Shown here in pieces: positions 8,382 to 24,647 of a stretch of DNA of 32,000 bases. The stretch is from positions 1 to 32,000 of the forward strand of contig NZ_CP040006.1 in the NCBI RefSeq assembly GCF_005696695.1. Direction: 5' to 3'. The first letter of the stretch is position 1. Each line of letters begins with the position of its first letter. A program made the position numbers and the translations under genes. The notes beneath the pieces are model-generated. The model saw only the letters and a list, made by a program, of their open reading frames with translations. It searched no databases and was not told the origin of the DNA. This DNA comes from Schaalia odontolytica. GTDB taxonomy: Bacteria; Actinomycetota; Actinomycetes; Actinomycetales; Actinomycetaceae.

Positions 8382-11012
<2,631 letters not shown>

Positions 11013-11139: not shown

Positions 11140-11532
11140 ATGAGCGACCACGTCTCGAGCACCCGCAGCGACGCTCCCCGCCGAGTTGACCTGGCCATCG
11201 CGCGCATCGACGCGTGGACCGTCATGAAGGTGGCGTTCCTGCTGTCCGTCGCCCTGGGTATCGCAATGGTCGTCGCCACGATCGTCCTGTGGCTCATGGT
11301 CGACGCCATGCACGTCTTCAGCCAGCTTGAGGAATTCCTCAAGACCATGGGCGCCGGACGCTACGCGGACCTCCTGGACTACGCTCGTCTGCCGCGCGTC
11401 ATCTCCTACGCGACCATCGTCGCAGTCATCAACGTCGTGCTGCTCACCGCCCTGTCGACGCTGGGAGCCATGCTCTACAACGTCGTCGCCTCGTTGGTGG
11501 GTGGCGTCAAGGTGTCTCTCATGGATGAGTGA
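11140..11532 (+). CDS. DUF3566 domain membrane protein (Rv0007-like)
   Basis: 130 aa from ATG 11140 (RBS GGAAGGAAA); an alternative GTG lies at 11119. Two TM helices. DLAIARIDAWTVMKVAFLLSVALGI and the C-terminal LYNVVASLVGGVKVSL are typical of the family. Conserved position after gyrA. Confidence 0.82.
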   Translation: MSDHVSSTRSDAPRRVDLAIARIDAWTVMKVAFLLSVALGIAMVVATIVLWLMVDAMHVFSQLEEFLKTMGAGRYADLLDYARLPRVISYATIVAVINVVLLTALSTLGAMLYNVVASLVGGVKVSLMDE

Positions 11533-11544
11533 GGGCACTCGCGC

Positions 11545-11573
11545 AAGGGGTCGGCTGATGTCGGCCCCTTTTG
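11545..11573 (+). terminator. intrinsic terminator after the DUF3566 gene
   Basis: AAGGGGTCGGC-TGAT-GTCGGCCCCTT followed by TTTG. 11-bp stem including two G.U pairs, with a T-run. Confidence 0.6.
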
Positions 11574-11600
11574 CTATGCCTTGTGACGGTTATCGCGCTG

Positions 11601-11642
11601 CTTGTAGCCCCGCCTGATCTCCTTGTAGCCCCGCCTGATCTC
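11601..11642. repeat. perfect 21-bp tandem duplication
   Basis: CTTGTAGCCCCGCCTGATCTC occurs at 11601-11621 and again at 11622-11642. Confidence 0.95.
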
Positions 11643-11700
11643 CGGCCGCCGCGTGTCCTGCCCGCCCGCGAGTCGTCCGCGCCGCGAGCTTCGCTCGGCG

Positions 11701-12052
11701 CGTCGTCTCGAAGCACGGCCAGGCCCCGCAGGCCACGCGGCGGCCTCCAATCGGGCGGTGCTTGGTACGTGTGCCCCGCCACCGCCCACCGGCACTGCGG
11801 CAGCTCCCTCCGGCGCCCTTCACATCAGTGGCGCCTTGTCGCTGACGTGTGGCCGGGGCGTCGTCTCGAAGCTCGGCCAGGCCCCGCAGGCCCCGCGGCG
11901 GCCTCCAATCGGGCGGGGCTTGGGGTGCGTGTGCTTGCTCTGGCCCCGCCACCGCCCACCGGCACCGCGGCAGCTCCCTCCGGCGCCCTTCACATCAGTG
12001 GCGCCTTGTCGCTGACGTGTGGCCGGGGCGTCGTCTCGAAGCTCGTCCCGGC
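11701..12052. repeat. GC-rich tandem repeat, module 1 of the composite element (locus A)
   Basis: Units start with CGTCGTCTCGAAGC at 11701, 11859 and 12029 (158 bp, 170 bp, then a partial unit). Copies 1 and 2 are nearly identical apart from a 12-bp indel. Preceded by the hairpin CGCGC(CG)CGAGC-TTC-GCTCGGCGCG at about 11679-11703. Confidence 0.9.
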
Positions 12053-12143
12053 CCCACTATCGCTCACTGTCGCCCGATGTCGGCGCTGCGTGGCCTCACC
12101 TGACTGTGTGTGCTGTACCTCGCTCGATGCCGGGTCATTAATT

Positions 12144-12249
12144 TCGCACGTAATTCCCCTGCGACTGTTTCAGGATTTGAATTGTGATCGTTGGTATTTC
12201 AACGTTTCTGCGTGTTGTTGTGGGGTCGGTCCGATCGAATTACGTGCGA
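12144..12249. repeat. 13-bp perfect inverted repeat flanking an AT-richer 80-bp core
   Basis: TCGCACGTAATTC (12144-12156) and GAATTACGTGCGA (12237-12249). Confidence 0.7.
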
Positions 12250-12300
12250 TTTTTCTAGGAGTGGGTTTGAAGCTACGTGTGGGTGTCGCAGATCCTTCGC

Positions 12301-12507
12301 GTGAAACCGGTTTGCCTGTGCTTGTGCGTGCTTGCGTGGGATTGAAACCGGCGTCGCCTTTGCGCGCTCGTACGTGGCTGGGGTTGAAACCGCCATCACC
12401 TTTGCGGGTGAGATACGGGTGTTTTTAGTGCGTTTTTCGGTTGCAGTGGTGTTGTTGGTTTCAATGGTTGCTGTTCAGGGGTGCGCAGTGGTGATGGTGG
12501 TTTCATG
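12301..12507. repeat. module 2 (locus A): 42-bp phased TGAAACC-N7-CC(T/A)(T/C)TGC motif array, 3 forward then 2 reverse units
   Basis: TGAAACC at 12302, 12343 and 12385. GGTTTCA at 12457 and 12499. The centre carries T-tracts (GTGTTTTTAGTGCGTTTTTCGG). Confidence 0.85.
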
Positions 12508-12571
12508 CTGGCCTGCATCAGTGGCTGCAGTGGTGTCATTATTTGCAAAGTCGCCACGGGCGGGGTCCTGC

Positions 12572-12735
12572 GTGTGAAGAAGTTCGCCCAGCACGGCCTG
12601 ATCGTGGGTGTGAGCGTGAAGTAGTTCGCCCAGCGCGCTCGAAACACCCCACATTTGACGTTTTTAAGGTTGCTGGGCGAATTTTGTCACGGGTTGAGTG
12701 GGGGACAGGGCGCGCCGGGCGAACTTTGTCACGCC
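12572..12735. repeat. module 3 (locus A): 42-bp phased GTGA-N5-TTCGCCCAGC motif array, 2 forward then 2 reverse units
   Basis: AGTTCGCC at 12581 and 12623. GGGCGAA at 12675 and 12717. AT-rich centre CACATTTGACGTTTTTAAGG. Confidence 0.85.
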
Positions 12736-12789
12736 TACCGGCTCGCTACTGTCACCGGCCCTTGCTCGGCCACAGGCCCCGTCCCCGTC

Positions 12790-12880
12790 CCGGAACAGTC
12801 CCGGCCCCGCCACCGCCTGCCGGCCCCGCCACCATAGTTTGCGGTGCCTCCGGCACCCTCCACATCGGCGTCGGTGGGGG
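12790..12880. repeat. degenerate extra copy of module 1
   Basis: CCCGGCCCCGCCACCGCC...GCGGTGCCTCCGGCACCCTCCACATCGGCG aligns with the GGCCCCGCCACCGCCCACCGGCACCGCGGCAG.TCCCTCCGGCGCCCT.CACA core of module 1. Confidence 0.6.
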
Positions 12881-13088
12881 TTTTGCAGCATTAGGAGCTG
12901 GATGTCGGCGTGTCGGCGGCGTGTCGGGGTTCTAATGACGTCATTTCCCCATGTGGCAGCAGTGAGGTCACGGTTCGAGGCCAAAGTGCAGACCACCTTG
13001 ATGAACAACGCTGACAACGGGCTGTTATGGGCGAGGTGGTCAAGGTTTTGGGTACACCGGTGATGTCGGTTTCTGTGGTTCCTTGTTG

Positions 13089-13119
13089 GGGGTGTGCAGT
13101 GGTGATGGTGGTTTCAATG
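13089..13119. repeat. distal near-identical copy of a module 2 reverse unit
   Basis: GGGGTGTGCAGTGGTGATGGTGGTTTCAATG (13089-13119) versus GGGGTGCGCAGTGGTGATGGTGGTTTCATG (12478-12507): one mismatch and one indel. Confidence 0.9.
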
Positions 13120-13323
13120 TCGCCACTTTATCGCCCAGTGGGCCTGGTGGCTGGGTCTATCTACTGGCGACCTTAACCCACCGATGCGCAGCTAAACCCC
13201 ATTGGTGGCATGGTGGGCAGCCCGCCCAGACCACCACCTGTCGGGTTAACGTGCGCGTAGGTGGGCTTAGATAGCCACCAGGTGGGCCCGCGTGCGCATC
13301 ACAGGGCCCGGGTGTCCGGTTCG

Positions 13324-14201
13324 CTAGTTGATGCCAATCCGCGTCGGGCGAGCCCGCAACAGTGCGCTGAGAACAGCACGCAGAAATCGGCCCGACCGCG
13401 ACGGCTGACGGTAATCGGGCGCAAGCGAAGACCTCTGACACCGCCACGCATAGGGGTTGTGGCTGAGCGGCCCCGGCCATGACGACGCGACGACGGTGGC
13501 CGGCGCGGGCAGGGGGAGCAGCGGACTCACCCAGGAACCCGCCGTCACGTAGATGTGTATCAGCCCGCAGATGCTCGCGAAAAATCCACCGTCAACAACC
13601 GGGGCTGGAAAACCCACGGGATCAAACGCGTAGACGTGCTTGAGCGGCGGAGGAGTGACCGTCGCAGCCGCGTACAGCGCGAGATTCGCGCCCTTCGAGT
13701 GTCCGACAACAATAATCGGCCCATCGGATCGCGACGCCGCATATGCCAGATAGTTGGCGGCCCACCGCTGCGAATCAGTCGGGAAATCAAGGCCGAAGCG
13801 GGCATCCTCCGCCCACCCGACCGCGCTTGCATTCGTCCCGCGGAAGACCACGTAGGTCGCCCCGGCCTCGTCGATGAAGGTGACGGAACCGAACTGAGCA
13901 AGCGGGCTCGACGTCAGCCGAGTGACCGCATCGCACACCGCAGGTCCCCGAAGCGCGCGCTCGCACCGGCGGCCTCGAGGAGGGGACGATCGGCGTGGGA
14001 CGCCAACGAATAGCGATACAGAGACGGGATTGACGAGGCCTGGGCGACTTCTCGGAGCAGGCATCCGCGCGCGGAACGAGGGCCGGGCAGCGCGTGGAAA
14101 TCCACGTAGACCAGGCACGAGAGAGCGAGGGCGTCGGCGGGGGAGAGGTCCGCTCGTAGCGGTGTGTGCGAGTCTCGGACGTGCTCGATGACGGTGGTCA
14201 C
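13324..14201 (-). pseudogene. DUF2974 (Mbeg1-like) alpha/beta hydrolase, disrupted by a -1 frameshift
   Basis: The N-terminal 95 aa (GTG 14201, RBS GGAGGAGG) stop at 13914. The rest of the fold continues in another frame (..LAQFGSVTFIDEAGATYVVFRGTNASAVGWAEDARF..IIVVGHSKGANLALYAAA..) down to 13324. This includes the GHSKG nucleophile elbow. Frame geometry fits loss of a single base near 13915-13975. Confidence 0.7.
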
Positions 14202-14268
14202 GAGGCCTCCTCCTCTCCATCGAGGGCCGGACGATCGCGGTCGTGTTGGACGTCACCAACGCTCGATT

Positions 14269-14297
14269 TTGCCGGATGGCCCTGTGCTGTGTACTAT
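14269..14297 (+). promoter_or_regulatory. candidate promoter of the tRNA-Ile / micro-ORF / tRNA-Ala unit
   Basis: -35 TTGCCG (14269-14274), 17-nt spacer, -10 TACTAT (14292-14297), about 28 nt upstream of tRNA-Ile. Confidence 0.4.
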
Positions 14298-14324
14298 ATC
14301 CGAGTGCCCGAAAGGGTGCCGGTT

Positions 14325-14401
14325 GGGCCTATAGCTCAGTAGGTTAGAGCGCAGTCCTGATAAGACTGAGGTCGGTGGTTCGAGCCCACCTAGGCCCACC
14401 A
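14325..14401 (+). tRNA. tRNA-Ile (anticodon GAT)
   Basis: GGGCCTATAGCTCAGTAGGTTAGAGCGCAGTCCTGATAAGACTGAGGTCGGTGGTTCGAGCCCACCTAGGCCCACCA. 7-bp acceptor stem GGGCCTA/TAGGCCC, anticodon loop CT-GAT-AA, T-loop GGTTCGAGCC, CCA encoded. Confidence 0.96.
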
Positions 14402-14431: not shown

Positions 14432-14566
14432 ATGAAGAAATGGGTCACCTGTTGTGTGGCTGTCGGATCCGTCGTGGCCGTCGGCATCGCCGTCCGACAA
14501 ATTCTCGTTGATCTTTCCGATAACGCTGACCTGTGGACGTCCGTCACGGACGCCGTGGAGGACTGA
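14432..14566 (+). CDS. small membrane protein, DLW-39-like
   Basis: 44 aa, MKKWVTCCVAVGSVVAVGIAVRQILVDLSDNADLWTSVTDAVED. GGAGG at 14421-14425, 6 nt before the ATG. One TM helix plus an acidic tail with a DLW motif. Sits between tRNA-Ile and tRNA-Ala. The family name is from memory. Confidence 0.6.
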   Translation: MKKWVTCCVAVGSVVAVGIAVRQILVDLSDNADLWTSVTDAVED

Positions 14567-14784: not shown

Positions 14785-16212
14785 TCAACCACGTTGAGGC
14801 CTGGCATGGGAGCCGGATGCCCCGCGTACTTGCTCGTAAGCGGCGAGTGCCTCGCGTCGCGACTCGGCCAGGTCGACGACAGGGACGACAGGCCGATCGG
14901 CTCCCTCCGGGATCCAGCGCTTGACATAGCAGCTGCGCGGGTCGAAGCGGGTGCGCTGGAGGTCAGGGTTGAAGATGCGGAAGTAGGGCGCAGCGTCCGC
15001 GCCGCAGCCGGCCACCCACTGCCAGGAGACAGGATTGTTGGCCTCGTCTGCGTCCACGAGAGTCTCCCAGAACCATTGCTCGCCGTCTTGCCAGGGCTGG
15101 AGCATGTTCTTGGTGAACAGCGATGCCGCGACCATGCGCACCCGGTTGTGCATCCAGCCTGTCTGCCATAGTTGCCGCATTCCAGCGTCGACGAGGTCGA
15201 TGCCGGTGCGGCCCTGTCGCCAGGCCTGCGCCAGGTGGTCGTTGGGATCGTAGGGGAATTCCGCGAAAGCCGGACGCATGGGGGTGTCCTCGAGATATTC
15301 GCGGTGGTGGAGCAGGTGCCAGCTGAACTCGCGCCAGTAGAGTTGCCTGGTCCAAGCGGCTATATCCTCGCCCGAGGCCGTGCTGCTACGGGCTGCGGCC
15401 ACGGCTTGGCGCGGCGATAGTTCCCCGCACCGCAACCTCGGCGAGATTCTACTGGTGGATGTTTCCTCCCCGGGCAGGTCGCGGCGTGTGGCATAGCCGG
15501 GCAACCAGCTGTCAATCGCATCCAGTTGCTGCAGGGCCGCCAATTCACCGGGCTCCCAGTGCTGTGCGAGGGTCTCTTCCCACCAGGCGGGGCCGTCGTC
15601 GAGCAAGCCAATGTCCTCTAAGTTCTGCAGGACGCCGTCCTCCCGCAACGAGGCGAGGGCTGTGGCCGCGCCGTCCGGATCAATGACCGGTGAGGGCTCG
15701 GGCAGGAGGGGACCGAGGGGCAGGGAGGCTACGGCGTGGCTGAACGGTGTGAAAACTTGGTAGTGGGAGCCGTTGGTCGTCTGCATCAGCCAGGGCTCGG
15801 TGAGCAGGCTGCCGGGGTGGCTGTGCACCTCGGTGCGGGATTTCAACTCTTGCTTGATGGCGGCGTCCAGTCGGCAGGCTGCCGGGGCGTAGCGTCGTGT
15901 CCAGTGCACGACGGTAGGTTGTAAGGCGTCCACGACTCGGCGCATGACGTTCGCGGCATCACCCCGGGCGAAGACGAGTGGAATGCCAAGGTCAGCAAGC
16001 CGCGGTGCCAGCTGCTGCAGACTGCGGTGGTACCACCACCGGGTGGCCGCACCGAGCGGGCGTGGGCCGTGCCGGTTGTTGTCTTCATCGGTCCTGCGGG
16101 TTTCGTGGATCCATAGTGCCACCACGGGCCCATGTGCTGCCGAGCAGGCGGCCGTCAGAGCTGGATGGTCAGCCAGACGGAGGTCGTCGCGAAGCCAGAT
16201 CAGTGTGGTCAT
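14785..16212 (-). CDS. phr: deoxyribodipyrimidine photolyase (class I CPD photolyase/cryptochrome family)
   Basis: 475 aa. N-terminal LIWLRDDLRLADHPAL. FAD-binding C-terminal motifs WREFSWHLL, TGWMHNRVRMVAASLF and DADEANNPVSWQWVAGCGADAAPYFRIFNP. Confidence 0.94.
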   Translation of the reverse strand: MTTLIWLRDDLRLADHPALTAACSAAHGPVVALWIHETRRTDEDNNRHGPRPLGAATRWWYHRSLQQLAPRLADLGIPLVFARGDAANVMRRVVDALQPTVVHWTRRYAPAACRLDAAIKQELKSRTEVHSHPGSLLTEPWLMQTTNGSHYQVFTPFSHAVASLPLGPLLPEPSPVIDPDGAATALASLREDGVLQNLEDIGLLDDGPAWWEETLAQHWEPGELAALQQLDAIDSWLPGYATRRDLPGEETSTSRISPRLRCGELSPRQAVAAARSSTASGEDIAAWTRQLYWREFSWHLLHHREYLEDTPMRPAFAEFPYDPNDHLAQAWRQGRTGIDLVDAGMRQLWQTGWMHNRVRMVAASLFTKNMLQPWQDGEQWFWETLVDADEANNPVSWQWVAGCGADAAPYFRIFNPDLQRTRFDPRSCYVKRWIPEGADRPVVPVVDLAESRREALAAYEQVRGASGSHARPQRG

Positions 16213-16856: not shown

Positions 16857-19800
16857 GTGCACATCAACCACACGTGGTCGAAGGCTTCCAAGCCGGCCCA
16901 GCTGCTTGCCATGCTGGTCACGACCGCCCTCGTTATGCTCGGCGTCACGACGCTGCCCACATATGCGGCGGCCCCGACGCTCAAACTCGCCATCACACCC
17001 GACGAGACCTCGTATCTCTCCGGTGTCGAGCAGCGCTACGTCGTCGAGTTCGCGTGCGCCTCCACCACGGAGGACTGCCTCGACTCGGTCGTCACCATCA
17101 CGCTGCCCCACACGGTGACCCCCGCGGGCAACTCGAACCTCGACTCGGCCCCCGAAGGCGTCAACGCCACGGCGACCGCCGGCAAGAAGGTCGTCACCCC
17201 CACGATCAAGGCTCCGACCGCTAACGCCGATGGCCTCGTCACCTACAACCTCGGAACAGTCGCCGCCGGCTCGTCGTTCCAGACGGTCCTGACCTTCACC
17301 GCCCCGCGCGGCGTGACCCCCGGCGGCTCCACCGTCACCCCGGTCGCGACCTTCACCTCGGGCGAGAGCAAGGAAACCTCCCAGGCGACCGTCACGATCA
17401 AGTCCGAGCCGACCCCGCTCCTGAGCAAGACCGGCCCGGTCGCAACCCCCAAGAACGTCGACGTGACCTACCAGATCACGCCGAAGTACGACACCAACGT
17501 GGACGGCCTCAACGGCAAGTCCAACATGACCGATGTCGTCATCACCGACCCGCTGCCCGCGTGCGCGAAGTACGTGTCCTCCTCGGCCTCGGGTAACACC
17601 AAGACGAACACGGCCGCGACCGTCGAGAGCTCCTACGACGCCGCGACCCACACCGTCACCTGGAACGTCGGCGACGTCAACCCCGCGTTCATGAACATCG
17701 TCCTGTCCGTCACCGTCCACTACGACGACACCTGCACGGACGAGACCGTCACCAACACCGCGAAGCTCACCGGCAAGGAGATGCACAACGAGACCAACGT
17801 TGTCACCGCCGATGCTTCCTTCACGCACCGCTTCGACAGCGAGATCCGCTACGGTGGCGGCTTCAACAAGCGCGCCATGAGCCAGTTCGAGCGCGGCAAG
17901 CAGGGCAACTGGCTGTACAGCTACTCCAACAACTCCAACGTCCCGGTCGTCATGGAGTACACCGACTACATGACCTGTGGCCTCGTCTCCCCGACCGACG
18001 GCTCCAAGGACTGCGACAAGCCCCTCATGCGCGTCAAGACGATCGACACCCAGACGACGACGCCCATCGAGATTACCTACTGGACCAACAAGGGCAACAC
18101 CGGCACTCAGACCGTCTACCGCGGCAAGGCATTCGACTTCTCCTCCTTCGCCGCCGACGAGTACCTGACCGTCTTCCACTACAAGCAGACGATCCCCGCC
18201 GGTGAGTCCTCGATCCTGAACGTCGCCGGCCCGGTCGGCGCCGGCACCCCAACGACCGAGGACGGCACCACCTACGTCCAGGCCGATACCAACTCCGCCG
18301 CATGGAAGGCCGGCAAGTCCGACCAGTACGTGCGCGTCCAGAACTGTGTCTCCGACTGGTCCATGAAGTCCCTCGACGGCTCCCGATCCATCCAGATCCC
18401 CGCCGACGACTACTGCGACATCCTCACGCTGGGCACCGCGCTGCCCAAGTACTACAACGCCAAGTCCACCATCAAGGGCAACCTGGCGTCCCCCGGCTCC
18501 GAGGTTACCTTCAGCGTCACCGCGAACAACACCTCGACCGTCGTTGACTCCCAGCCCGTCATCTCCGACCTGCTGCCCTGCGGCATGACCTTCGTCGAGG
18601 ACTCCGTCACCGGTGGTCCCGCAGGTAAGGAAAAGACCGTCACGGTCCGCGACGTCACCGACGCCACCGGCTGCACCCGCCAGCTCGTCCAGGTCACCTG
18701 GCCCGGCTACCAGACCAAGGGTGGCACCACCATCCAGCTGCGCGGCAAGGTCGGCCCCTCGATGAGCGCAGGCACGCACAAGAACGAGGCCTACATCTCC
18801 GCAGCCGAACCCGAGTACGCGCTGACCTCCAAGAAGACCACGATCTGCTTCTACGGCTCCACCGACGACACCTACGATGTCAACGGTGATGGCAACACGG
18901 CCGACCAGGTCTGCCCCGTCTCCTCGACCTTCACGGTCTCCGAGCAGGCCGGTGCCGACGTCGTCCTCGAGAGCCTCGGCTCCGTGGAAGGCTCGACCTA
19001 CAAGAAGTACACCGACGGCGTGTCCATGATCCGCCAGGGTGAAGACGGCCAGTACCGCATCACCCCCACCAACTCCGGTAACGCGGACCTGTCCGACATG
19101 ACCGTGTACGGCATCCTGCCCCACGTTGGTGATACCGCCATCCAGGGTTCTGATTCTCGTGGCTCCGAGTGGGCGCCCATCCTCACCGGCCCCCTCCAGG
19201 TCGGCGCAGGCTCGGGCATCGACCCCTCGCAGGTCACCATCGAGTACTCAACCTCCTACAACCCCTGCCGCGGCGAAGTCATGAAGCAGGGCGACGCGAT
19301 GGCGGCTGGCCCCGCCGGATGCGACAACAACTGGACCGCTACTCCGGCCTCGTGGGCCGACGTGAAGTCCTACCGCATCTACATCAACGGCAAGGCCACC
19401 CCGATCAAGGCCGGCGCATCGATCCCGATCATCGCGCCCATCAAGGCCCCCGATAACGCGACCGGCATCGCCTACGAGTCCGTCGCGATCGCGGCCACCC
19501 AGGCCTCGAACAACCGTGCCATCCTGCCCGCCGAGCCGATCAAGGTCGCCATGGCCCTCGCGCTCGACGTCGCCCTCAACAAGACCGTCGTCTCCGACGC
19601 TTCCAACCTGAAGCCCGGAGACCAGGTCACCTACCGCATCGACGCCGGCAACATCGGCCAGGGCAAGGCCCCCGACCTCAAGGTCAAGGAAGCCTTCCCC
19701 GCAGGTACCACCTTCGTGTCCGCCGAGACGCACAAGTGCGCCTCCGGCTACACGACCGGCCTGCCGCAGGAATGTAAGGGCACCGACGAGGCCGGCACCT

Positions 19801-22800
19801 TCGACGGCACCACGTGGACGATCGGCGACATGCTCGCCGGCGAATACGCCTCGCTCTTCGTGACCGTCACGCTGGACGCCGGCACCGACGGCAAGACCCT
19901 CAACAACACGGCCGCCTTCGTGAACCCGCCCGAGTACGACCTCGTGCCCGGCAACAACTCCTCCTCGGCGTCCATCACCGTCAAGCATCGCCTCTCCGGC
20001 AAGGTGTACTACGACGCGAACGAGTCCTCCTCCTTCGACAACGGTGAGGACCCCTTCAAGGACATCACGGTCGAGCTGGTCGGTGCCGACGGTAACGTCG
20101 TCGCCACCACCAAGACCGACGCGGACGGCAACTACTCCTTCACCGGCCTTGACGCCGGAACCTACACGGTCAAGGTCACCAAGGCCGGCGAGATCGCCGA
20201 GCTGACCCAGACCGAGGATCCGGACGGCACGAAGGACAACGCCTCCGGCGCGATCACGCTCAACGCCGACAACCCGGTCCGCGAGAACGTCAACTTCGGC
20301 TACATCAAGAAGCACGCGATCTCCGGCAACGTCTACCTCGATCAGAACCGCGATAAGACGAAGAACACGGGCGATATCGACCTGTCCGGTGTCACCGTGA
20401 AGCTGCTCGACAAGGACGGCAACGTCGTGGGTACCACCACGACCGACAAGGACGGCAACTACTCCTTCACCGGCCTCAGCGACGGCACCTACACCGTCCA
20501 GGTCGACAAGACCGGCCCGCTGGCGGACAAGGAGCAGACCGAGGATCCCTCCGGTAAGACGGACTCGCGTTCGCAGGCCATTACCTTCACGCGCAGCGAC
20601 CCGGACGTCACCAACGTCAACTTCGGCTACGCCGAGGACTACACGGTCTCCGGCACTGTGTACTACGACAAGGACCGCTCCGAGTCCCTCAACAACTCCG
20701 AGCCCGGCTTCGACGGCATCACCGTGAACCTGCTCGGCGAGGACGGCTCGGTCGTCGCGACGACCACGACGAAGGCAGACGGCACGTACTCCTTCTCCAA
20801 GCTGCCCGCCGGCAAGTACACCGTCAAGGTGGAGCCCTCCGACCTCCTCAAGAAGCTCGAGCAGACCGAGGACCCGGACGGCACCAAGGACCACACCTCC
20901 GGCGTCGTCCAGGTGAACCACGACAACCCCTCCGTGAAGAACGTGAACTTCGGTTACGCCACGAACTACACGATCAAGGGCACCGTCTACCGTGACGCCG
21001 ACCGCTCCGAGTCCCTCGAGAACGGCGAGAAGCTCTACCAGGGTGTGACCGTCGACCTTCTCGACACGGACGGTAACGTCGTGGCCACCACGACCACCGA
21101 CGCCAAGGGCGCCTACGCGTTCACCAACCTCGAGGAAGGCACCTACAAGGTCCGCGTCCACAAGGAAGGCCCCATCGCCGACCTCGTCCAGACCGAGGAC
21201 CCCGACGCCACCAAGGACAACACCTCCGGTGACATCACCCTCGAGCTGAACGACCCGATCAAGGAGAACGTCAACTTCGGGTACATCTCGAACAACTCGA
21301 TCTCCGGCACGGTCTACCGCGACGACAACCGCTCCAACTCCCTCAACGGGGGAGAGGCCGGCTACCCCGAGCAGACGGTCCAGCTCCTCGATAAGGACGG
21401 ACAGGTCATCGCGACCACCAAGACCGACGCCAACGGCAACTACTCCTTCGACAACCTGCCCGACGGCACCTACTCCGTCAAGGTCGTCAAGGACGGTGCC
21501 CTCACCGACCTCGAGCAGACCGAGGACCCGGACGGCACCAAGGACAGCGCCTCCGAGCCCATCGTCCTGAACGAGGACAACCCCACGAAGAAGAACGTCA
21601 ACTTCGGCTACGTGCCCGACTACTTCATCAAGGGCACCATCTACCGTGACGGCAACCGCTCCGGCGCGCTGGACACGGATGAGAAGCTCTACGAGGGCGT
21701 GACGGTCAACCTGGTCGACGCCGACGGCAACGTCGTCGCCACCACCACGACCGACGAGAAGGGCAACTACTCCTTCGACAAGCTCCCCGCGGGCACCTAC
21801 TCCGTCAAGGTCGTTCAGGATGGCCCCATCGCCGGCCTCGAGCAGACCGGCGACCCGGACGCCACGAAGGACAACGCCTCCGAGCCCATCACGCTGAACA
21901 ACGACAACCCGTCCAAGACGGACGTCAACTTCGGCTACGTGAACAACAACTCCCTGTCGGGCACCGTCTACCGCGATGACTCGCGCAACGGCGACCAGGA
22001 CGGCACCGAGCCCGGATACTCCGGCGTGACGGTCCAGCTCCTCGACAAGGACGGCAACGTCGTGGGTACCACGACGACCGACAAGGACGGCAAGTACTCC
22101 TTCGAGCACCTGCCCGACGGCACCTACTCCGTCAAGGTCGTCAAGGACGGCGAGCTCGCCGACACCGAGCAGACCGAGGACCCGGACGCGAACAAGGACA
22201 ACGCCTCCGAACCGGTGACCCTGGGCGAGGACAACCCCTCCAAGGACAACATCGACTTCGGATACGTTCCCGACTACTCGATCCACGGCCTCGTCTACCG
22301 AGACGGTGACCGCTCCGAGTCGCACGGCGCGACCGAGAAGGGCTACGCCAACCAGACCGTCGAGCTGCGCGACAAGGACGGCAAGGTCGTCGCGACCACC
22401 ACGACGGACGAGAACGGCGCCTACTCCTTCGAGAAGCTGCCCGCCGGCGACTACACCGTCAAGGTCGTCAAGGACGGTGCCCTCACCGACCTCGACCAGA
22501 CGGAGGACCCGGACTCCACCAAGGACTCCACCTCCGGCGTCATCTCGCTGAGCAACGACCACCGCACCGAAACGGACGTCAACTTCGGCTACATTGCCAA
22601 CAACTCCATCAACGGCACCATCTACCGTGACGGTGACCGCGATGGAAAGAAGGGCGACACCGAAGGACGCTACTCCGGCGTGACGGTCCAGCTCCTCGAC
22701 AAGGACGGTAAGGTCATCGCCACCACGACGACCGACAAGGACGGCAAGTACTCCTTCGAGCACCTGCCCGACGGCACCTACTCCGTCAAGGTCGTCAAGG

Positions 22801-23714
22801 ACGGTGCCCTCACCGACACCGACCAGACCGGCGACCCCGACAACAAGCTGGACAACGCGTCCGAGCCGATCACCCTCGACGAGAAGAACCCCACCAAGGG
22901 TGACGTCGACTTCGGCTACGTCCCGAACAACACCATCAAGGGCACCGTCTACCGCGACGACAACCGCGACAAGACGATCGACGGTGACGAGCCCGGCCTC
23001 GAGCGTGTGAGCGTCCAGCTCCTCGACGAGGACGGCAAGGTCCTCCAGACCCTCGACACCGACGCGGACGGCAACTACGCCTTCCAGCACCTGCCCGACG
23101 GCAAGTACACCGTCAAGGTCGTGCGCTCCTCGTCCATCAAGGACTACGACCAGACCGAGGACCCCGACGCCACCGTCGACGACACCTCCGCGGTGTACAC
23201 GATGGGCCCGGAGAACTCCCTGCAGGAAAAGGTCAACTTCGGCTACGTCCCGGACTACTCGATCGCCGGTCGCGTCTACCGCGACTCCGACAAGTCCGGC
23301 TCCTACACCGACGGTGAAGAGACCTTCTCCGGCGTGACGGTCGACCTGCTCGACAAGGACGGCAACGTCGTGGCCACCACGACGACCGACAAGGACGGCA
23401 ACTACTCCTTCGAGAAGCTGCCCGCCGGCACCTACCGCGTCAAGGTCCACCCGGACGGCGACCTCGCCGGCCTCGACCAGACCGAGGACCCGGACGGCAT
23501 CGCCGACTCCATGTCCGGTGAGATCACGATCGGCTTCGACAACCAGAAGGTCACCGGCGTGAACTTCGGTTACGTCGCGCCCGACGTCCCGGCCACCAAG
23601 CCGAAGAAGGGCCTCGCCCGCACCGGCTTCGACGGCCTGATCGGCGGGGCTGGCCTGGGAGCGGCCGTCGTTGGCGGCATGTTCCTGTGGATGCGTCGCC
23701 GTCGCCAGGACTGA
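16857..23714 (+). CDS. cell-wall-anchored surface adhesin: DUF11/Ig-like N-terminal region, 11 SdrD B-like (Cna-B type) repeats and an LAxTG sorting signal
   Basis: 2285 aa, GTG start with AGGAGAAGG RBS. Signal peptide (..LVMLGVTTLPTYAAAP). DUF11-type segments, e.g. LNKTVVSDASNLKPGDQVTYRIDAGNIGQGKAPDLKVKEAFPAGTTFVSA. C-terminal LARTG (23613-23627), then a hydrophobic helix and RRRRQD tail. Confidence 0.94.
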   Translation: MHINHTWSKASKPAQLLAMLVTTALVMLGVTTLPTYAAAPTLKLAITPDETSYLSGVEQRYVVEFACASTTEDCLDSVVTITLPHTVTPAGNSNLDSAPEGVNATATAGKKVVTPTIKAPTANADGLVTYNLGTVAAGSSFQTVLTFTAPRGVTPGGSTVTPVATFTSGESKETSQATVTIKSEPTPLLSKTGPVATPKNVDVTYQITPKYDTNVDGLNGKSNMTDVVITDPLPACAKYVSSSASGNTKTNTAATVESSYDAATHTVTWNVGDVNPAFMNIVLSVTVHYDDTCTDETVTNTAKLTGKEMHNETNVVTADASFTHRFDSEIRYGGGFNKRAMSQFERGKQGNWLYSYSNNSNVPVVMEYTDYMTCGLVSPTDGSKDCDKPLMRVKTIDTQTTTPIEITYWTNKGNTGTQTVYRGKAFDFSSFAADEYLTVFHYKQTIPAGESSILNVAGPVGAGTPTTEDGTTYVQADTNSAAWKAGKSDQYVRVQNCVSDWSMKSLDGSRSIQIPADDYCDILTLGTALPKYYNAKSTIKGNLASPGSEVTFSVTANNTSTVVDSQPVISDLLPCGMTFVEDSVTGGPAGKEKTVTVRDVTDATGCTRQLVQVTWPGYQTKGGTTIQLRGKVGPSMSAGTHKNEAYISAAEPEYALTSKKTTICFYGSTDDTYDVNGDGNTADQVCPVSSTFTVSEQAGADVVLESLGSVEGSTYKKYTDGVSMIRQGEDGQYRITPTNSGNADLSDMTVYGILPHVGDTAIQGSDSRGSEWAPILTGPLQVGAGSGIDPSQVTIEYSTSYNPCRGEVMKQGDAMAAGPAGCDNNWTATPASWADVKSYRIYINGKATPIKAGASIPIIAPIKAPDNATGIAYESVAIAATQASNNRAILPAEPIKVAMALALDVALNKTVVSDASNLKPGDQVTYRIDAGNIGQGKAPDLKVKEAFPAGTTFVSAETHKCASGYTTGLPQECKGTDEAGTFDGTTWTIGDMLAGEYASLFVTVTLDAGTDGKTLNNTAAFVNPPEYDLVPGNNSSSASITVKHRLSGKVYYDANESSSFDNGEDPFKDITVELVGADGNVVATTKTDADGNYSFTGLDAGTYTVKVTKAGEIAELTQTEDPDGTKDNASGAITLNADNPVRENVNFGYIKKHAISGNVYLDQNRDKTKNTGDIDLSGVTVKLLDKDGNVVGTTTTDKDGNYSFTGLSDGTYTVQVDKTGPLADKEQTEDPSGKTDSRSQAITFTRSDPDVTNVNFGYAEDYTVSGTVYYDKDRSESLNNSEPGFDGITVNLLGEDGSVVATTTTKADGTYSFSKLPAGKYTVKVEPSDLLKKLEQTEDPDGTKDHTSGVVQVNHDNPSVKNVNFGYATNYTIKGTVYRDADRSESLENGEKLYQGVTVDLLDTDGNVVATTTTDAKGAYAFTNLEEGTYKVRVHKEGPIADLVQTEDPDATKDNTSGDITLELNDPIKENVNFGYISNNSISGTVYRDDNRSNSLNGGEAGYPEQTVQLLDKDGQVIATTKTDANGNYSFDNLPDGTYSVKVVKDGALTDLEQTEDPDGTKDSASEPIVLNEDNPTKKNVNFGYVPDYFIKGTIYRDGNRSGALDTDEKLYEGVTVNLVDADGNVVATTTTDEKGNYSFDKLPAGTYSVKVVQDGPIAGLEQTGDPDATKDNASEPITLNNDNPSKTDVNFGYVNNNSLSGTVYRDDSRNGDQDGTEPGYSGVTVQLLDKDGNVVGTTTTDKDGKYSFEHLPDGTYSVKVVKDGELADTEQTEDPDANKDNASEPVTLGEDNPSKDNIDFGYVPDYSIHGLVYRDGDRSESHGATEKGYANQTVELRDKDGKVVATTTTDENGAYSFEKLPAGDYTVKVVKDGALTDLDQTEDPDSTKDSTSGVISLSNDHRTETDVNFGYIANNSINGTIYRDGDRDGKKGDTEGRYSGVTVQLLDKDGKVIATTTTDKDGKYSFEHLPDGTYSVKVVKDGALTDTDQTGDPDNKLDNASEPITLDEKNPTKGDVDFGYVPNNTIKGTVYRDDNRDKTIDGDEPGLERVSVQLLDEDGKVLQTLDTDADGNYAFQHLPDGKYTVKVVRSSSIKDYDQTEDPDATVDDTSAVYTMGPENSLQEKVNFGYVPDYSIAGRVYRDSDKSGSYTDGEETFSGVTVDLLDKDGNVVATTTTDKDGNYSFEKLPAGTYRVKVHPDGDLAGLDQTEDPDGIADSMSGEITIGFDNQKVTGVNFGYVAPDVPATKPKKGLARTGFDGLIGGAGLGAAVVGGMFLWMRRRRQD
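19992..23576 (+). repeat. 11 tandem in-frame repeats of about 327 bp (109 aa) encoding SdrD B-like domains
   Basis: Each unit reads xSGxVYxDxxR..GxxGVTVxLLDxDGNVVATTTTDxDGNYSFxxLPxGTYxVKVxxxGxLxxLxQTEDPDxTKDNxS..NPxxxNVNFGY. There are 11 (N/D)FGY unit ends. Confidence 0.92.
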
Positions 23715-23762: not shown

Positions 23763-23794
23763 AAGGGGCGGGTACTTCGGTACCCGCCCCTTTG
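23763..23794 (+). terminator. intrinsic terminator of the adhesin gene
   Basis: AAGGGGCGGGTAC-TTCG-GTACCCGCCCCTT then TG. Perfect 13-bp stem, UUCG loop, short T-run, 49 nt after the stop. Confidence 0.7.
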
Positions 23795-23952
23795 GCGTAC
23801 CTGGGTGGTCGTGTGATGTACCCGGGCGGTTGTGTGGGCCGGGCTACTTGTGGCCTCACGGGTGTTCCGGGTGCCGTCGGGCCCGGCCGCTGTGTGTTCC
23901 GGTGGGCGGCGGCCCGCCCGCTCGCCGTCCGCGCCGCGAGCTTCGCTCGGCG

Positions 23953-24148
23953 CGTCGCCTCGAAGCCCGGCCAGGCCCCGCCACCGCCCACCGGCACCGC
24001 GGCAGATCCCTCCGGCGCCCTCCACACCAGTGGTGCCGGGTGTGTTGATGGGCACGGCGCGTCGTCTCGAAGCCCGGCCAGGCCCCGCCACCGCCCACCG
24101 GCACCGCGGCCAGGCCCTGCCGCCATCCACCGGTGTGGCCGGTGACTC
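23953..24148. repeat. module 1 (locus B): two 107-bp tandem units
   Basis: CGTCG(C/T)CTCGAAGCCCGGCCAGGCCCCGCCACCGCCCACCGGCACCGCGGC starts at 23953 and 24060. Preceded by the same hairpin-containing lead-in CCGCGCCGCGAGCTTCGCTCGGCG as locus A. Confidence 0.9.
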
Positions 24149-24150
24149 TC

Positions 24151-24316
24151 GTGAAACCGTCATCACCTTTGCTGGCGCGTGCTCTGTCTCCAGTGAAACC
24201 GACGGCACCATTGCTCGACAGAAACACCCGTTTTTGATGCTATGTCTTCGAGCAAAGGCGTCGTGGGTTTCATGGTGGCATCATGAGGCTCCAGCATTGG
24301 TGCCCGCGGTTTCACA
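24151..24316. repeat. module 2 (locus B): 2 forward plus 2 reverse TGAAACC-type units, 42-bp phased
   Basis: TGAAACC at 24152 and 24194. GGTTTCA at 24266 and 24308. Centre GAAACACCCGTTTTTGATGC. Confidence 0.85.
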
Positions 24317-24339
24317 CAACGGCAGGGCGAGCAGTTTCG

Positions 24340-24462
24340 GCGCGAAAAAGTTCGCCCTGCTCGGCCTGGTGTGGGCGTAAGCGCGAAAAAGTTCGCCCAG
24401 CATACGAAAAATGGCCCAAAAATGGTGTTATATGGCGTGCTGGGCGAGTTTTTTCGCGGGCG
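24340..24462. repeat. module 3 (locus B): 2 forward plus 1 reverse TTCGCCCAGC-type units
   Basis: AGTTCGCC at 24349 and 24390. 21-nt inverted repeat CGCGAAAAAGTTCGCCCAGCA (24382-24402) / TGCTGGGCGAGTTTTTTCGCG (24438-24458), 19 of 21 complementary. 35-nt A-tract spacer. Confidence 0.88.
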
Positions 24463-24647
24463 TGAGCTCGAAGGCCTCGTGTGGGTGGCAGGTGGTCAGT
24501 CTCCAGTGTTCAAGCCACCGCGGCACCCGGTGTGACTGGTGTTGTGGGTGCCTGGGGGATGTCGCGAAGGTGGGCAGGAAGCTGTTGCAAACGCAAACCT
24601 GTGAGGATGAAGCCGATGACGCCGCGTCCAACGATCTGCATACAGAA

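Follow-up and report, generated by a model that had tools for sequence, protein, structure and literature searches.

Interspersed hairpin repeats such as REP/BIME, BOX, ERIC and Correia elements shape termination, mRNA stability, recombination and assembly quality, and have hardly been described in the Actinomycetaceae. The BOX elements of Streptococcus pneumoniae (boxA-boxB(n)-boxC) contain a variable number of tandem boxB units, are enriched between convergent genes, differ in length between strains and cluster with other repeats (PMC3049150). Here we analysed the first 32,000 nucleotides (forward strand) of contig NZ_CP040006.1 of Schaalia odontolytica (assembly GCF_005696695.1), in the following simply the window, and in particular its intergenic gap at 11574-13323, which extends from the stop codon and terminator of a DUF3566 gene to an Mbeg1-like gene. 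This gap is very probably a repeat island, made of lineage-specific interspersed intergenic mosaic repeats of the Schaalia/Pauljensenia ('Actinomyces odontolyticus') group, which behave like BOX or BIME and have a foldback-like architecture. The island was assigned to none of the described families, as it lacks the defining features of REP/BIME, MITEs (miniature transposable elements with inverted repeats), CRISPR, parS and the Rfam families, and its architecture differs from that of BOX.

The gap is a collinear mosaic of at least seven non-coding, individually palindromic modules, arranged as A-H-B-C-E-F-G. Its parts are the following:

11601-11643, plus strand: 21-bp perfect tandem duplication, CTTGTAGCCCCGCCTGATCTC twice (Tandem Repeats Finder, 2.0 copies, 100% match)
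11650-12067, plus strand: module A, GC-rich, sub-parts A1 and A2, 2.3 tandem copies with a period of 158/170 bp
12140-12253, plus strand: module H, an AT-richer hairpin of ~110 nt with a 14-bp outer stem (TCGCACGTAATTC / GAATTACGTGCGA) and an inner stem CGTTG/CAACG
12302-12547, plus strand: module B, a foldback array of direct 42-bp units with core TGAAACCGNCRTCRCCTTTG, starting at 12302 (degenerate), 12343 and 12385
12570-12738, plus strand: module C, a foldback array with cores GAARNAGTTCGCCCAGC at 12576 and 12618, 42 bp apart
12790-12862, plus strand: degenerate partial copy of module A (GGCCCCGCCACCGCC...)
12863-12965, plus strand: module E, a hairpin-forming repeat (GGGGGTTTTGCAGCATTAGGAGC ... 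GGTTCTAATGACGTCATTTCCCC)
12975-13055, plus strand: module F, an 81-nt hairpin (CCAAAGTGCAGACCACCT ... AGGTGGTC..GTTTTGG)
13046-13119, plus strand: solo right-arm fragment of module B with inverted cores at 13055-13074 and 13097-13116, 42 bp apart
13150-13300, plus strand: module G, short arrays of CGCACGTTAAC-like motifs opposing GGGTTAACGTGCG, with a ~21-bp period in other strains

Much of this had been noticed in a first-pass annotation made from the letters of the window alone. The gap of about 1750 bp without credible coding, the 21-bp duplication, the GC-rich 158/170-bp tandem repeat, a 13-bp perfect inverted repeat (12144-12156 / 12237-12249, within module H), arrays of TGAAACC and TTCGCCCAGC motifs, a degenerate extra GC-rich copy (12800-12834) and a recurring motif unit near 13089-13119 were all found again. 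The exact 42-bp period of the motif arrays and their convergent foldback organisation had been missed.

The 21-bp duplication shows partial complementarity to a segment of module A and occurs in one other strain only (L003). Copies of module A start at 11696, 11854 and 12024 (spacing 158 and 170 bp), and 11696-11885 is 90% identical to 11854-12055. In module B, the TGAAACC cores on the plus strand (12302, 12343, 12385) are followed by a T-rich centre (12405-12443) and by inverted cores at 12444-12463, 12486-12505 and 12528-12547, the last one degenerate, with GGTTTCA at 12457 and 12499. In module C, GTTCGCCC cores at 12582 and 12624 oppose inverted cores GCTGGGCGAAYTTTGTC at 12672-12688 and 12714-12730, again 42 bp apart, with GGGCGAA at 12675 and 12717. 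The recurring motif unit corresponds to the solo arm of module B (13046-13116 against 12435-12505, 79% identity), and module G ends at the stop codon of the minus-strand Mbeg1-like gene. Such cores are far more frequent than chance allows: the B core (20 nt, up to 3 mismatches) occurs 8 times in the window against 0.03 expected, and the C core (17 nt) 8 times against 0.09, numbers reached in none of 100 shuffles in either case.

Searches for coding or known RNA families returned little. Six open reading frames (ORFs) of the two gaps treated here gave no Pfam match, and the longest (11571-12428, 285 aa) matched, in a search of 5.8 billion proteins and with the patchy coverage usual for ORFs called on repeats, only unnamed ORFs of metagenome contigs that themselves lack Pfam domains. 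Thus, no protein homology points to a decayed gene. With Rfam 15 at gathering thresholds, the window matches were two tRNAs and nothing in the gap; at a relaxed E-value a lone meaningless match appeared, to the precursor of a plant miRNA, with 22.5 bits where the gathering score is 268. A scan that covers actinobacterial promoter types poorly found no sigma-70-like promoter in 11400-14400.

Modules B and C are constructed on a common lattice. Read in a 42-nt register, module B has 2-3 direct units whose first 21 nt are the conserved core TGAAACCGNCRTCRCCTTTGC, then the T-rich centre and then 1-3 inverted cores, 42 bp apart; module C is organised alike around another core, CGCGAAAAAGTTCGCCCWGC. 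In both modules the unit is exactly 42 bp long and consists of a conserved 21-bp core and a poorly conserved spacer. Nearly every locus that was fetched follows the formula B+(n)-59-B-(m)-49/91-C+(n)-54-C-(m) or its reverse complement, where n and m range from 1 to 9. Over all fetched loci, cores of the same orientation are spaced by exactly 42 bp in 262 of 281 B pairs (93%), and by 42 bp in 106 of 146 C pairs with 36 more at 41 bp, while the distance from B+ to B- is 59 in 107 of 115 cases and that from C+ to C- is 54 in 74 of 78. Beyond the TGAAAC anchor, the cores hold 1.04 bit per position against 0.21 in the spacers. Fixed-length, hypervariable spacers could be taken as a sign of selection on spacing. 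This argument is weakened by the finding that the spacers group into a small number of diverged types (pairwise identity averages 0.42, compared with 0.28 after shuffling), so that the fixed length of 42 bp may be inherited from ancestral units rather than selected. A CRISPR array was considered and rejected: the 21-nt cores stand in two convergent blocks, the spacer types recur, and the same arrays are found at dozens of loci.

The modules are dispersed over many sites. One genome per species was scanned for a pattern of two B units, whereby at least 120 stretches were matched; apart from a few chance ones, all matches listed belong to Schaalia, Pauljensenia or 'Actinomyces' of the odontolytica group. 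Modules were found in more than 100 fetched loci from about 10 species-level genomes of this group, and single genomes of ~2.3 Mb carry at least 18, 16, 11 and 10 loci, the first two being Pauljensenia sp. 27098_8_107 and the metagenome-assembled genome DRR247344_bin.12. BLAST of the gap against these loci showed that 11620-13290 is almost wholly repeated DNA, with unique stretches only at 12075-12140 and 12750-12790, whereas the genes flanking the gap match only 2-3 orthologous loci. Among ~120 fetched loci, module B is present in 110, A (as tandem or inverted pairs) and C in ~60 each, H in ~40, E in ~30, and F and G in ~19 each. The order A-H-B-C-E-F-G is repeated at many unrelated loci, each module being optional. 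By their flanking proteins, the loci form ~30 groups, each common to several species; many islands are therefore old residents rather than recent insertions.

The first-pass annotation had called the gap a structured, duplicated element. It is indeed non-coding, structured and not decayed, but instead of a two-copy element it is a mosaic of separately recurring modules, spread in large numbers over several species. Neither of the outcomes that the annotation had named as refuting was obtained, since protein homology is lacking and the modules recur abundantly elsewhere, also in other species. Its statement that no described repeat family or RNA is recognisable agrees with the empty Rfam result and with our literature searches, in which no description of these repeats was found. 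The family thus appears to be undescribed. Searches with blastn ('distant') of PLSDB plasmids and INPHARED phages gave no match. In IMG/VR, arrays are present in only 3 contigs of one oral metagenome (L131-L133, UViG_3300045988_*), which bear B, C, H and A in chromosomal order and are probably host DNA at prophage borders or mis-binned. Two assemblies titled 'Sanguibacter keddieii 250_SKED' (L015, L022, L043 etc., NZ_JVOJ01...) and 'Xylanimonas cellulosilytica 352_XCEL' (L052, L060 etc., NZ_JVKM01...) hold 10-11 loci; they are probably mislabelled, because their flanking genes are shared with Schaalia/Pauljensenia genomes.

A second island lies in the window, in the gap downstream of a large surface-protein gene, where the GC-rich module is again followed by the two arrays, with order and orientation unchanged (23912-24460), as the first-pass annotation had described:

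23896-24125, plus strand: module A, two copies 107 bp apart
24146-24318, plus strand: module B of sub-family B2, direct cores at 24152 and 24194, inverted cores at 24253-24272 and 24294-24314
24322-24466, plus strand: module C, plus cores at 24344 and 24385, inverted core at 24439-24455 and a stray inverted core at 24322-24338

Here, 23912-23981 is 93% identical to 11660-11729.

Window positions 1140-21532 are 100% identical to LLVT01000001.1 of strain XH001 (Schaalia, formerly Actinomyces, odontolytica subsp. actinosynbacter). The DUF3566 protein is identical in ten assemblies including the window strain, which have the same flanking genes with gaps of 1344-1792 bp between them. In the nine other assemblies the flanks are ~96% identical to the window, while the gap aligns only in pieces at 79-90%, and in the case of L004 it could not be aligned by megablast. 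Nevertheless, B and C arrays are present at the DUF3566 gap in every strain compared, with 2 or 3 units per arm, and the number of units changes between strains, and between the two arms, by whole 42-bp steps. Because the architecture repeats, with variations, between the same flanks in nine more independent assemblies, an assembly artefact is excluded.

At the second island, some strains have B-C replaced by a convergent TTCTGGATAGG / CCTATCCAGA array, followed by E, F and G. No clean insertion between shared flanks was found when filled and empty sites were compared there; the differing module sets between fixed flanks therefore indicate module replacement rather than clean insertion. In L001, L008 and L010 (alignment A1, columns ~540-660), three copies of TTCTGGATAGG oppose three of CCTATCCAGA with a ~20-bp period, a foldback module that is absent from the window, and a palindromic module GTTACAAACG / CGTTTGTAAC is also present. 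The occurrence of such arrays beside B and C implies that this lineage holds several unrelated core families with one convergent-array architecture.

How does the island compare with the known systems? Like BOX, with which no sequence relationship is to be expected and which was compared by description, it is composite, modular, non-coding and present at many intergenic sites. It shares with BOX the variable tandem sub-units (45 bp in boxB, 42 bp in Schaalia), the length differences between strains, the predicted stem-loops, the over-representation at gene 3' ends and in convergent gaps, and the nesting or clustering with other repeats (PMC3049150). Unlike the boxB array, which is single, unidirectional and placed between distinct boxA and boxC, the Schaalia modules have two convergent arrays of one core, and they are chained in fixed order up to 1.8 kb in a 66% G+C actinobacterium. 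With the BIME/REP mosaics of enterobacteria and pseudomonads, the island has in common a mosaic of palindromic units in both orientations, joined by short linkers and placed after genes, the variable unit number and hairpins with a strand-specific form. In contrast to these, the core consensuses TGAAACCGNCRTCRCCTTTG and GAAAAAGTTCGCCCWGC are not self-palindromes of 20-40 bp and have no GTAG/CGTC heads, the period is strictly 42 bp, and the arms are blocks of direct repeats instead of units of alternating orientation. REP systems also have a single-copy gene flanked by repeats, the RAYT (Y1 transposase), which was not found in ~120 loci; the only genes seen bracketed by modules (B or F) are DUF559/MTES_1575-like, a possible but unproven parallel.

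In architecture, though only in architecture, the arrays are closer to eukaryotic foldback (FB) transposons, whose long inverted arms consist of short tandem sub-repeats, are often unequal and enclose a short central loop. FB elements are eukaryotic, make 9-bp target duplications and in some cases encode a transposase; here, neither duplication nor transposase was seen.

From the strain comparisons, a mechanism can be proposed in which the arrays would lengthen or shorten by replication slippage or unequal recombination, and modules would be exchanged among loci by ectopic recombination or gene conversion. Such swapping of modules would account for a divergence that is far higher in the gap than in its flanks. 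The cores would be kept either via sequence-specific recognition by a putative factor or via concerted evolution. Most likely the island behaves like BOX, BIME/REP or ERIC, namely as hairpin DNA next to terminators that is tolerated and largely selfish, with a possible secondary effect on termination or on the 3' stability of mRNAs.

The islands follow the 3' ends of genes and have the same orientation as the gene upstream. When composites were oriented from B to C and flanking ORFs were taken from a filter based on G+C content at third codon positions (GC3), the left-hand (upstream) gene pointed to the element in 33 of 39 cases. Tandem contexts were co-oriented in 19 and anti-oriented in 4 cases, and convergent gaps outnumbered divergent ones by 14 to 2; rough de-replication by orthology left ~11:2 and ~8:2, respectively.

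The two strands also differ. Right-arm cores deviate from the exact complement of the left arm by transitions that lead to G.U pairs on the B-to-C strand. In 85 distinct inner B hairpins, we counted 2045 Watson-Crick, 602 G.U and 147 A.C cells, and in the C hairpins 1796, 235 and 109. The element strand is the more stable one in 77 of 85 B and 56 of 70 C hairpins. For 12296-12512 the RNA minimum free energy is -94 kcal/mol on the plus strand against -49 on the minus strand, and in the window the plus strand folds 10-29 kcal/mol better over 12100-12700 and 12850-13370, an advantage that covers H-B-C and E-F-G and does not extend to A. Because only the B-to-C strand forms these G.U (G.T) pairs, it would be the relevant single-stranded form, be it read-through RNA or lagging-strand-template DNA. 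A few B hairpins point the opposite way with respect to C and yet retain a skew of their own, which shows the skew to be a trait of the sequence family and not of the local strand.

Several results weigh against a BOX/BIME-like repeat family, or at least limit what can be said of it. Copy numbers and taxonomic range are lower bounds. The orientation statistics come from a crude GC3-based ORF caller and from partly orthologous, non-independent loci. Intrinsic terminators precede both islands of the window, which weakens a role in the upstream mRNA. The G.U asymmetry lies in the consensus of the family and could stem from one founder copy. In 71 B and 70 C hairpins no arm-to-arm covariation was detected, pairing being equal to that of shuffled arms (z = -0.2 and -0.1); to look for covariation had been proposed in the first-pass annotation. 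The two arms do not correlate in their number of units (r = -0.17 and 0.11), from which it follows that long hairpins are not maintained as such. Target-site duplications, also proposed by that annotation as something to look for along with a copy count, showed no excess for 2-9 bp at any tested offset of 105 B and 66 C module boundaries; apparent matches of 2-4 bp at C boundaries are part of a CGCG palindrome. Lastly, no recurrent transposase-like ORF cluster was present in ~120 loci, as clustering of their ~750 coding-like ORFs gave only housekeeping orthologues and ABC paralogues.

Part of this evidence could be read in terms of a structured RNA. Plus-strand transcripts of the whole island, or of its H-B-C and E-F-G parts, would serve as a 3'-UTR stabiliser, an insulator between convergent genes or a hairpin scaffold for protein binding. 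The G.U pairs confined to one strand, the better folding of the plus strand, the own skew of flipped B hairpins and the preference for 3' ends co-oriented with upstream genes would all suit such an RNA, as would module H, where 6 of 20 copies have two-sided changes (CACGTA to CATGCA) at 2 of 14 stem pairs. However, these two-sided changes are probably a single (sub-family) event, the arms lack covariation and vary independently in unit number, and the cores are conserved as sequence and not just as pairing. Together with the terminator ahead of each window copy, the promoter scan and the lack of Rfam matches, this makes a structured RNA unlikely; given the absent covariation and the upstream terminators, an RNA function stays unproven.

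The same strand asymmetry is compatible with G.T pairs in single-stranded DNA. Hairpins on the lagging-strand template would then be substrates of a strand-specific recombinase or nuclease that disperses or homogenises them, comparable to REP/RAYT, IS200/IS605 ends or integron attC sites. In both window copies the foldable strand is the plus strand, to the right of dnaA-gyrA, which by standard geometry should be the lagging-strand template. Core conservation at the sequence level is what protein recognition would produce, and the DUF559/MTES_1575-like genes bracketed by B arrays or F hairpins could encode such a partner. We nonetheless consider this reading rather improbable, as the recurrent ORFs of ~120 loci included no Y1/HUH transposase or integrase, the B termini TGAAAC...GTTTCA do not match the attC consensus RYYYAAC/GTTRRRY, and the consensus has no REP-type head. 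The DUF559 genes themselves stand at fixed orthologous sites and were partly ascertained via B arrays.

These genes, which combine a winged helix-turn-helix (wHTH) with an MTES_1575/DUF559 nuclease-like domain and are flanked by direct module copies, were located as follows:

L077, 5414-6517: DUF559-like gene
L084, 1833-2876: DUF559-like gene
L130, 691-1734: DUF559-like gene
L067, 399-1442: DUF559-like gene
L107, 2177-3187: DUF559-like gene, a paralogue

Between trkH and trkA stands a 367-aa gene with a C-terminal MTES_1575/DUF559 nuclease-like domain and B arrays of the same orientation on both sides, which are 97% identical over 164 bp in L077 and 85-94% identical in L084, L130 and L067; this arrangement is found in at least four species-level genomes. 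The paralogue in L107 (40% identity) is enclosed by two F hairpins of 99% identity, and H modules lie beyond them. Also next to the DUF559 gene at trkH-trkA, one-directional B super-arrays occur with a super-period of 178 bp (42 + 136), at 83-2532 in L067, 73-513 in L130, 1186-1490 in L115 and 1242-1598 in L081. Many homologues lie on very short contigs, as expected with repeat flanks. The first examples were ascertained through B arrays, and the homologues are confined to 2-4 fixed orthologous sites (trkH-trkA; ROK-AP_endonuc_2), with one per site. One exact protein was found in two contexts (L138 and L140), which looks like a rearrangement or a chimera. As a mobile partner, the DUF559 gene was thus rejected and kept only as a low-probability lead.

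It would be a long shot, but the 21-bp cores may be recognition sites of a dedicated protein that maintains the family, the most specific candidate being the wHTH + DUF559/MTES_1575 protein, or else the chain from H to G may be a new class of long, modular hairpin RNA. We take DUF559/MTES_1575 to be a Vsr-like PD-(D/E)xK nuclease. If the former were true, it would be a partnership similar to REP-RAYT with a different nuclease fold, acting on strand-asymmetric foldback arrays on a 42-bp lattice.

A further possibility concerns double-stranded DNA. The F-plasmid centromere sopC has 12 repeats of 43 bp, and as in sopC and iteron arrays, the Schaalia units measure about four helical turns and have a conserved core, which in sopC binds protein. 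The cores, phased at 42 bp, could thus bind a nucleoid-associated, centromere/ParB-like or iteron-like protein. In line with this are the rigid spacing, the conserved 21-bp cores between weakly conserved spacers, the vicinity of the window to oriC, and the TGAAAC start of the core, which we take to be half of the actinobacterial parS palindrome GTTTCAC|GTGAAAC. On the other hand, sopC and iteron arrays are single-locus, unidirectional and adjacent to partition or replication genes, while the Schaalia arrays are convergent orphans dispersed over ~30 or more site groups and not clustered at the origin. The 16-bp parS palindrome with GTTTCACGTGAAAC is absent from the window and from the strain loci L001-L010, where only half-sites occur. 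Cores of the left and right arm differ systematically, which a binder of double-stranded DNA would not need; the fixed spacer length can be inherited, given the few spacer types, and the plasmids and phages searched held nothing similar. A protein-binding lattice of this kind is therefore very unlikely.

We judge it just as doubtful that the modules are ordinary MITEs, i.e. non-autonomous transposons of the cut-and-paste type that are mobilised in trans and whose core arrays would provide several transposase-binding sites at each end. Multiple sub-terminal binding sites are known from the ends of Tn7, Mu and IS21. Single modules are indeed small (~120-330 bp), intergenic, multi-copy and non-autonomous-looking, with terminal inverted cores (TGAAAC...GTTTCA in B, CGCGAAAAAG...CTTTTTCGCG in C). 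In another oral bacterium, Porphyromonas gingivalis, there is also a minisatellite-bearing MITE, BrickBuilt, which contains a tandem array of 23-nt units with variable length (PMC4596501). Unlike MITEs, the Schaalia modules in the fetched loci have neither target-site duplications nor a cognate or recurrently adjacent transposase, and insertion sequences with B- or C-type ends were found neither there nor in the plasmids and phages searched. Independent insertions would not give a fixed collinear module order and distance, and many sites are orthologous across species. Finally, decayed genes or an assembly artefact have next to no probability and are already refuted as far as sequence searches reach, since long open ORFs such as 11571-12428 are expected at 66% G+C and match no Pfam family or named protein, and the whole gap is made of dispersed repeats whose structure is seen in ten independent assemblies.

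This interspersed repeat family accounts for the length of the intergenic regions of S. odontolytica, for their hypervariability among strains and for the spurious ORF calls and contig breaks to which they are prone. Its variation by 42-bp units is a ready marker for strain typing of an organism very common in oral and gut metagenomes. The Saccharibacteria epibiont TM7x has its model host in XH001, and for this strain strand-specific RNA-seq data (cited in PMC12369343 and PMC10768705) and transposon-sequencing data from a saturated EZ-Tn5 library (PMC12369343) exist. The foldback arrays, the G.U bias of one strand and the possible link to DUF559 raise the question of how repeats are maintained without a transposase.

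Both islands are located in the high-G+C origin region, whose genes run dnaA, dnaN, recF, DciA, a 299-aa ORF, gyrB, gyrA and DUF3566. The features around the islands are:

11140-11532: DUF3566 gene, the last one before the first gap
11547-11573, plus strand: intrinsic terminator of the DUF3566 gene (terminator scan), a 9-bp stem GGGGTCGGC/GTCGGCCCC followed by TTTT, downstream of which the island begins
13324-14259, minus strand: Mbeg1-like gene (PF11187)
14325: tRNA-Ile
14578: tRNA-Ala
14785-16212, minus strand: photolyase gene
16857-23714, plus strand: gene of a 2285-aa sortase-type surface protein with SdrD_B repeats
23765-23793, plus strand: intrinsic terminator of the surface-protein gene (read from the sequence), GGGGCGGGTAC TTCG GTACCCGCCCC TTT, with the second island after it
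second gap, 3' of the surface-protein gene, then a PAP2 gene on the minus strand

The next gene after the first gap is the Mbeg1-like gene and not tRNA-Ile, a correction to the first-pass annotation, where the gap was said to interrupt a gyrA / DUF3566 / tRNA-Ile synteny. In XH001 the Mbeg1-like gene is frameshifted: the alignment with the 292-aa protein of L003 passes near 13938-13947 from frame -2 (residues 1-88) to frame -1 (residues 86-292). The gene is split into 204 + 95 aa in the public annotation and intact (292 aa) in nine other strains, so that XH001 has either a pseudogene or a sequencing error here. The photolyase gene is a strain-level polymorphism, present in XH001 and L003-L006, while L001, L002, L007, L008 and L010 have no such gene between tRNA-Ala and the surface-protein gene. 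The surface-protein gene contains a tandem repeat at 20088-23496, ~10.4 copies of 327 bp (109 aa; SdrD_B/CarboxypepD_reg), and its product measures 1742, 1744, 1958 or 2285 aa depending on the strain.

Straight after the DUF3566 terminator, two strains carry GGGGGTTCGATTCCCCCCATCTCCACA (L005 10448-10476, L010 ~10450-10480). It resembles a tRNA T-arm with the 3' acceptor strand, is neither from tRNA-Ile nor from tRNA-Ala, and gave no full tRNA with ARAGORN; it may be an att-site remnant of an integrative element. Between tRNA-Ile and tRNA-Ala, a conserved ORF of 44 aa (MKKWVTCCVAVGS...DLWTSVTDAVED) is located on the plus strand at 14432-14566 and is called as a gene in all 10 strain loci.

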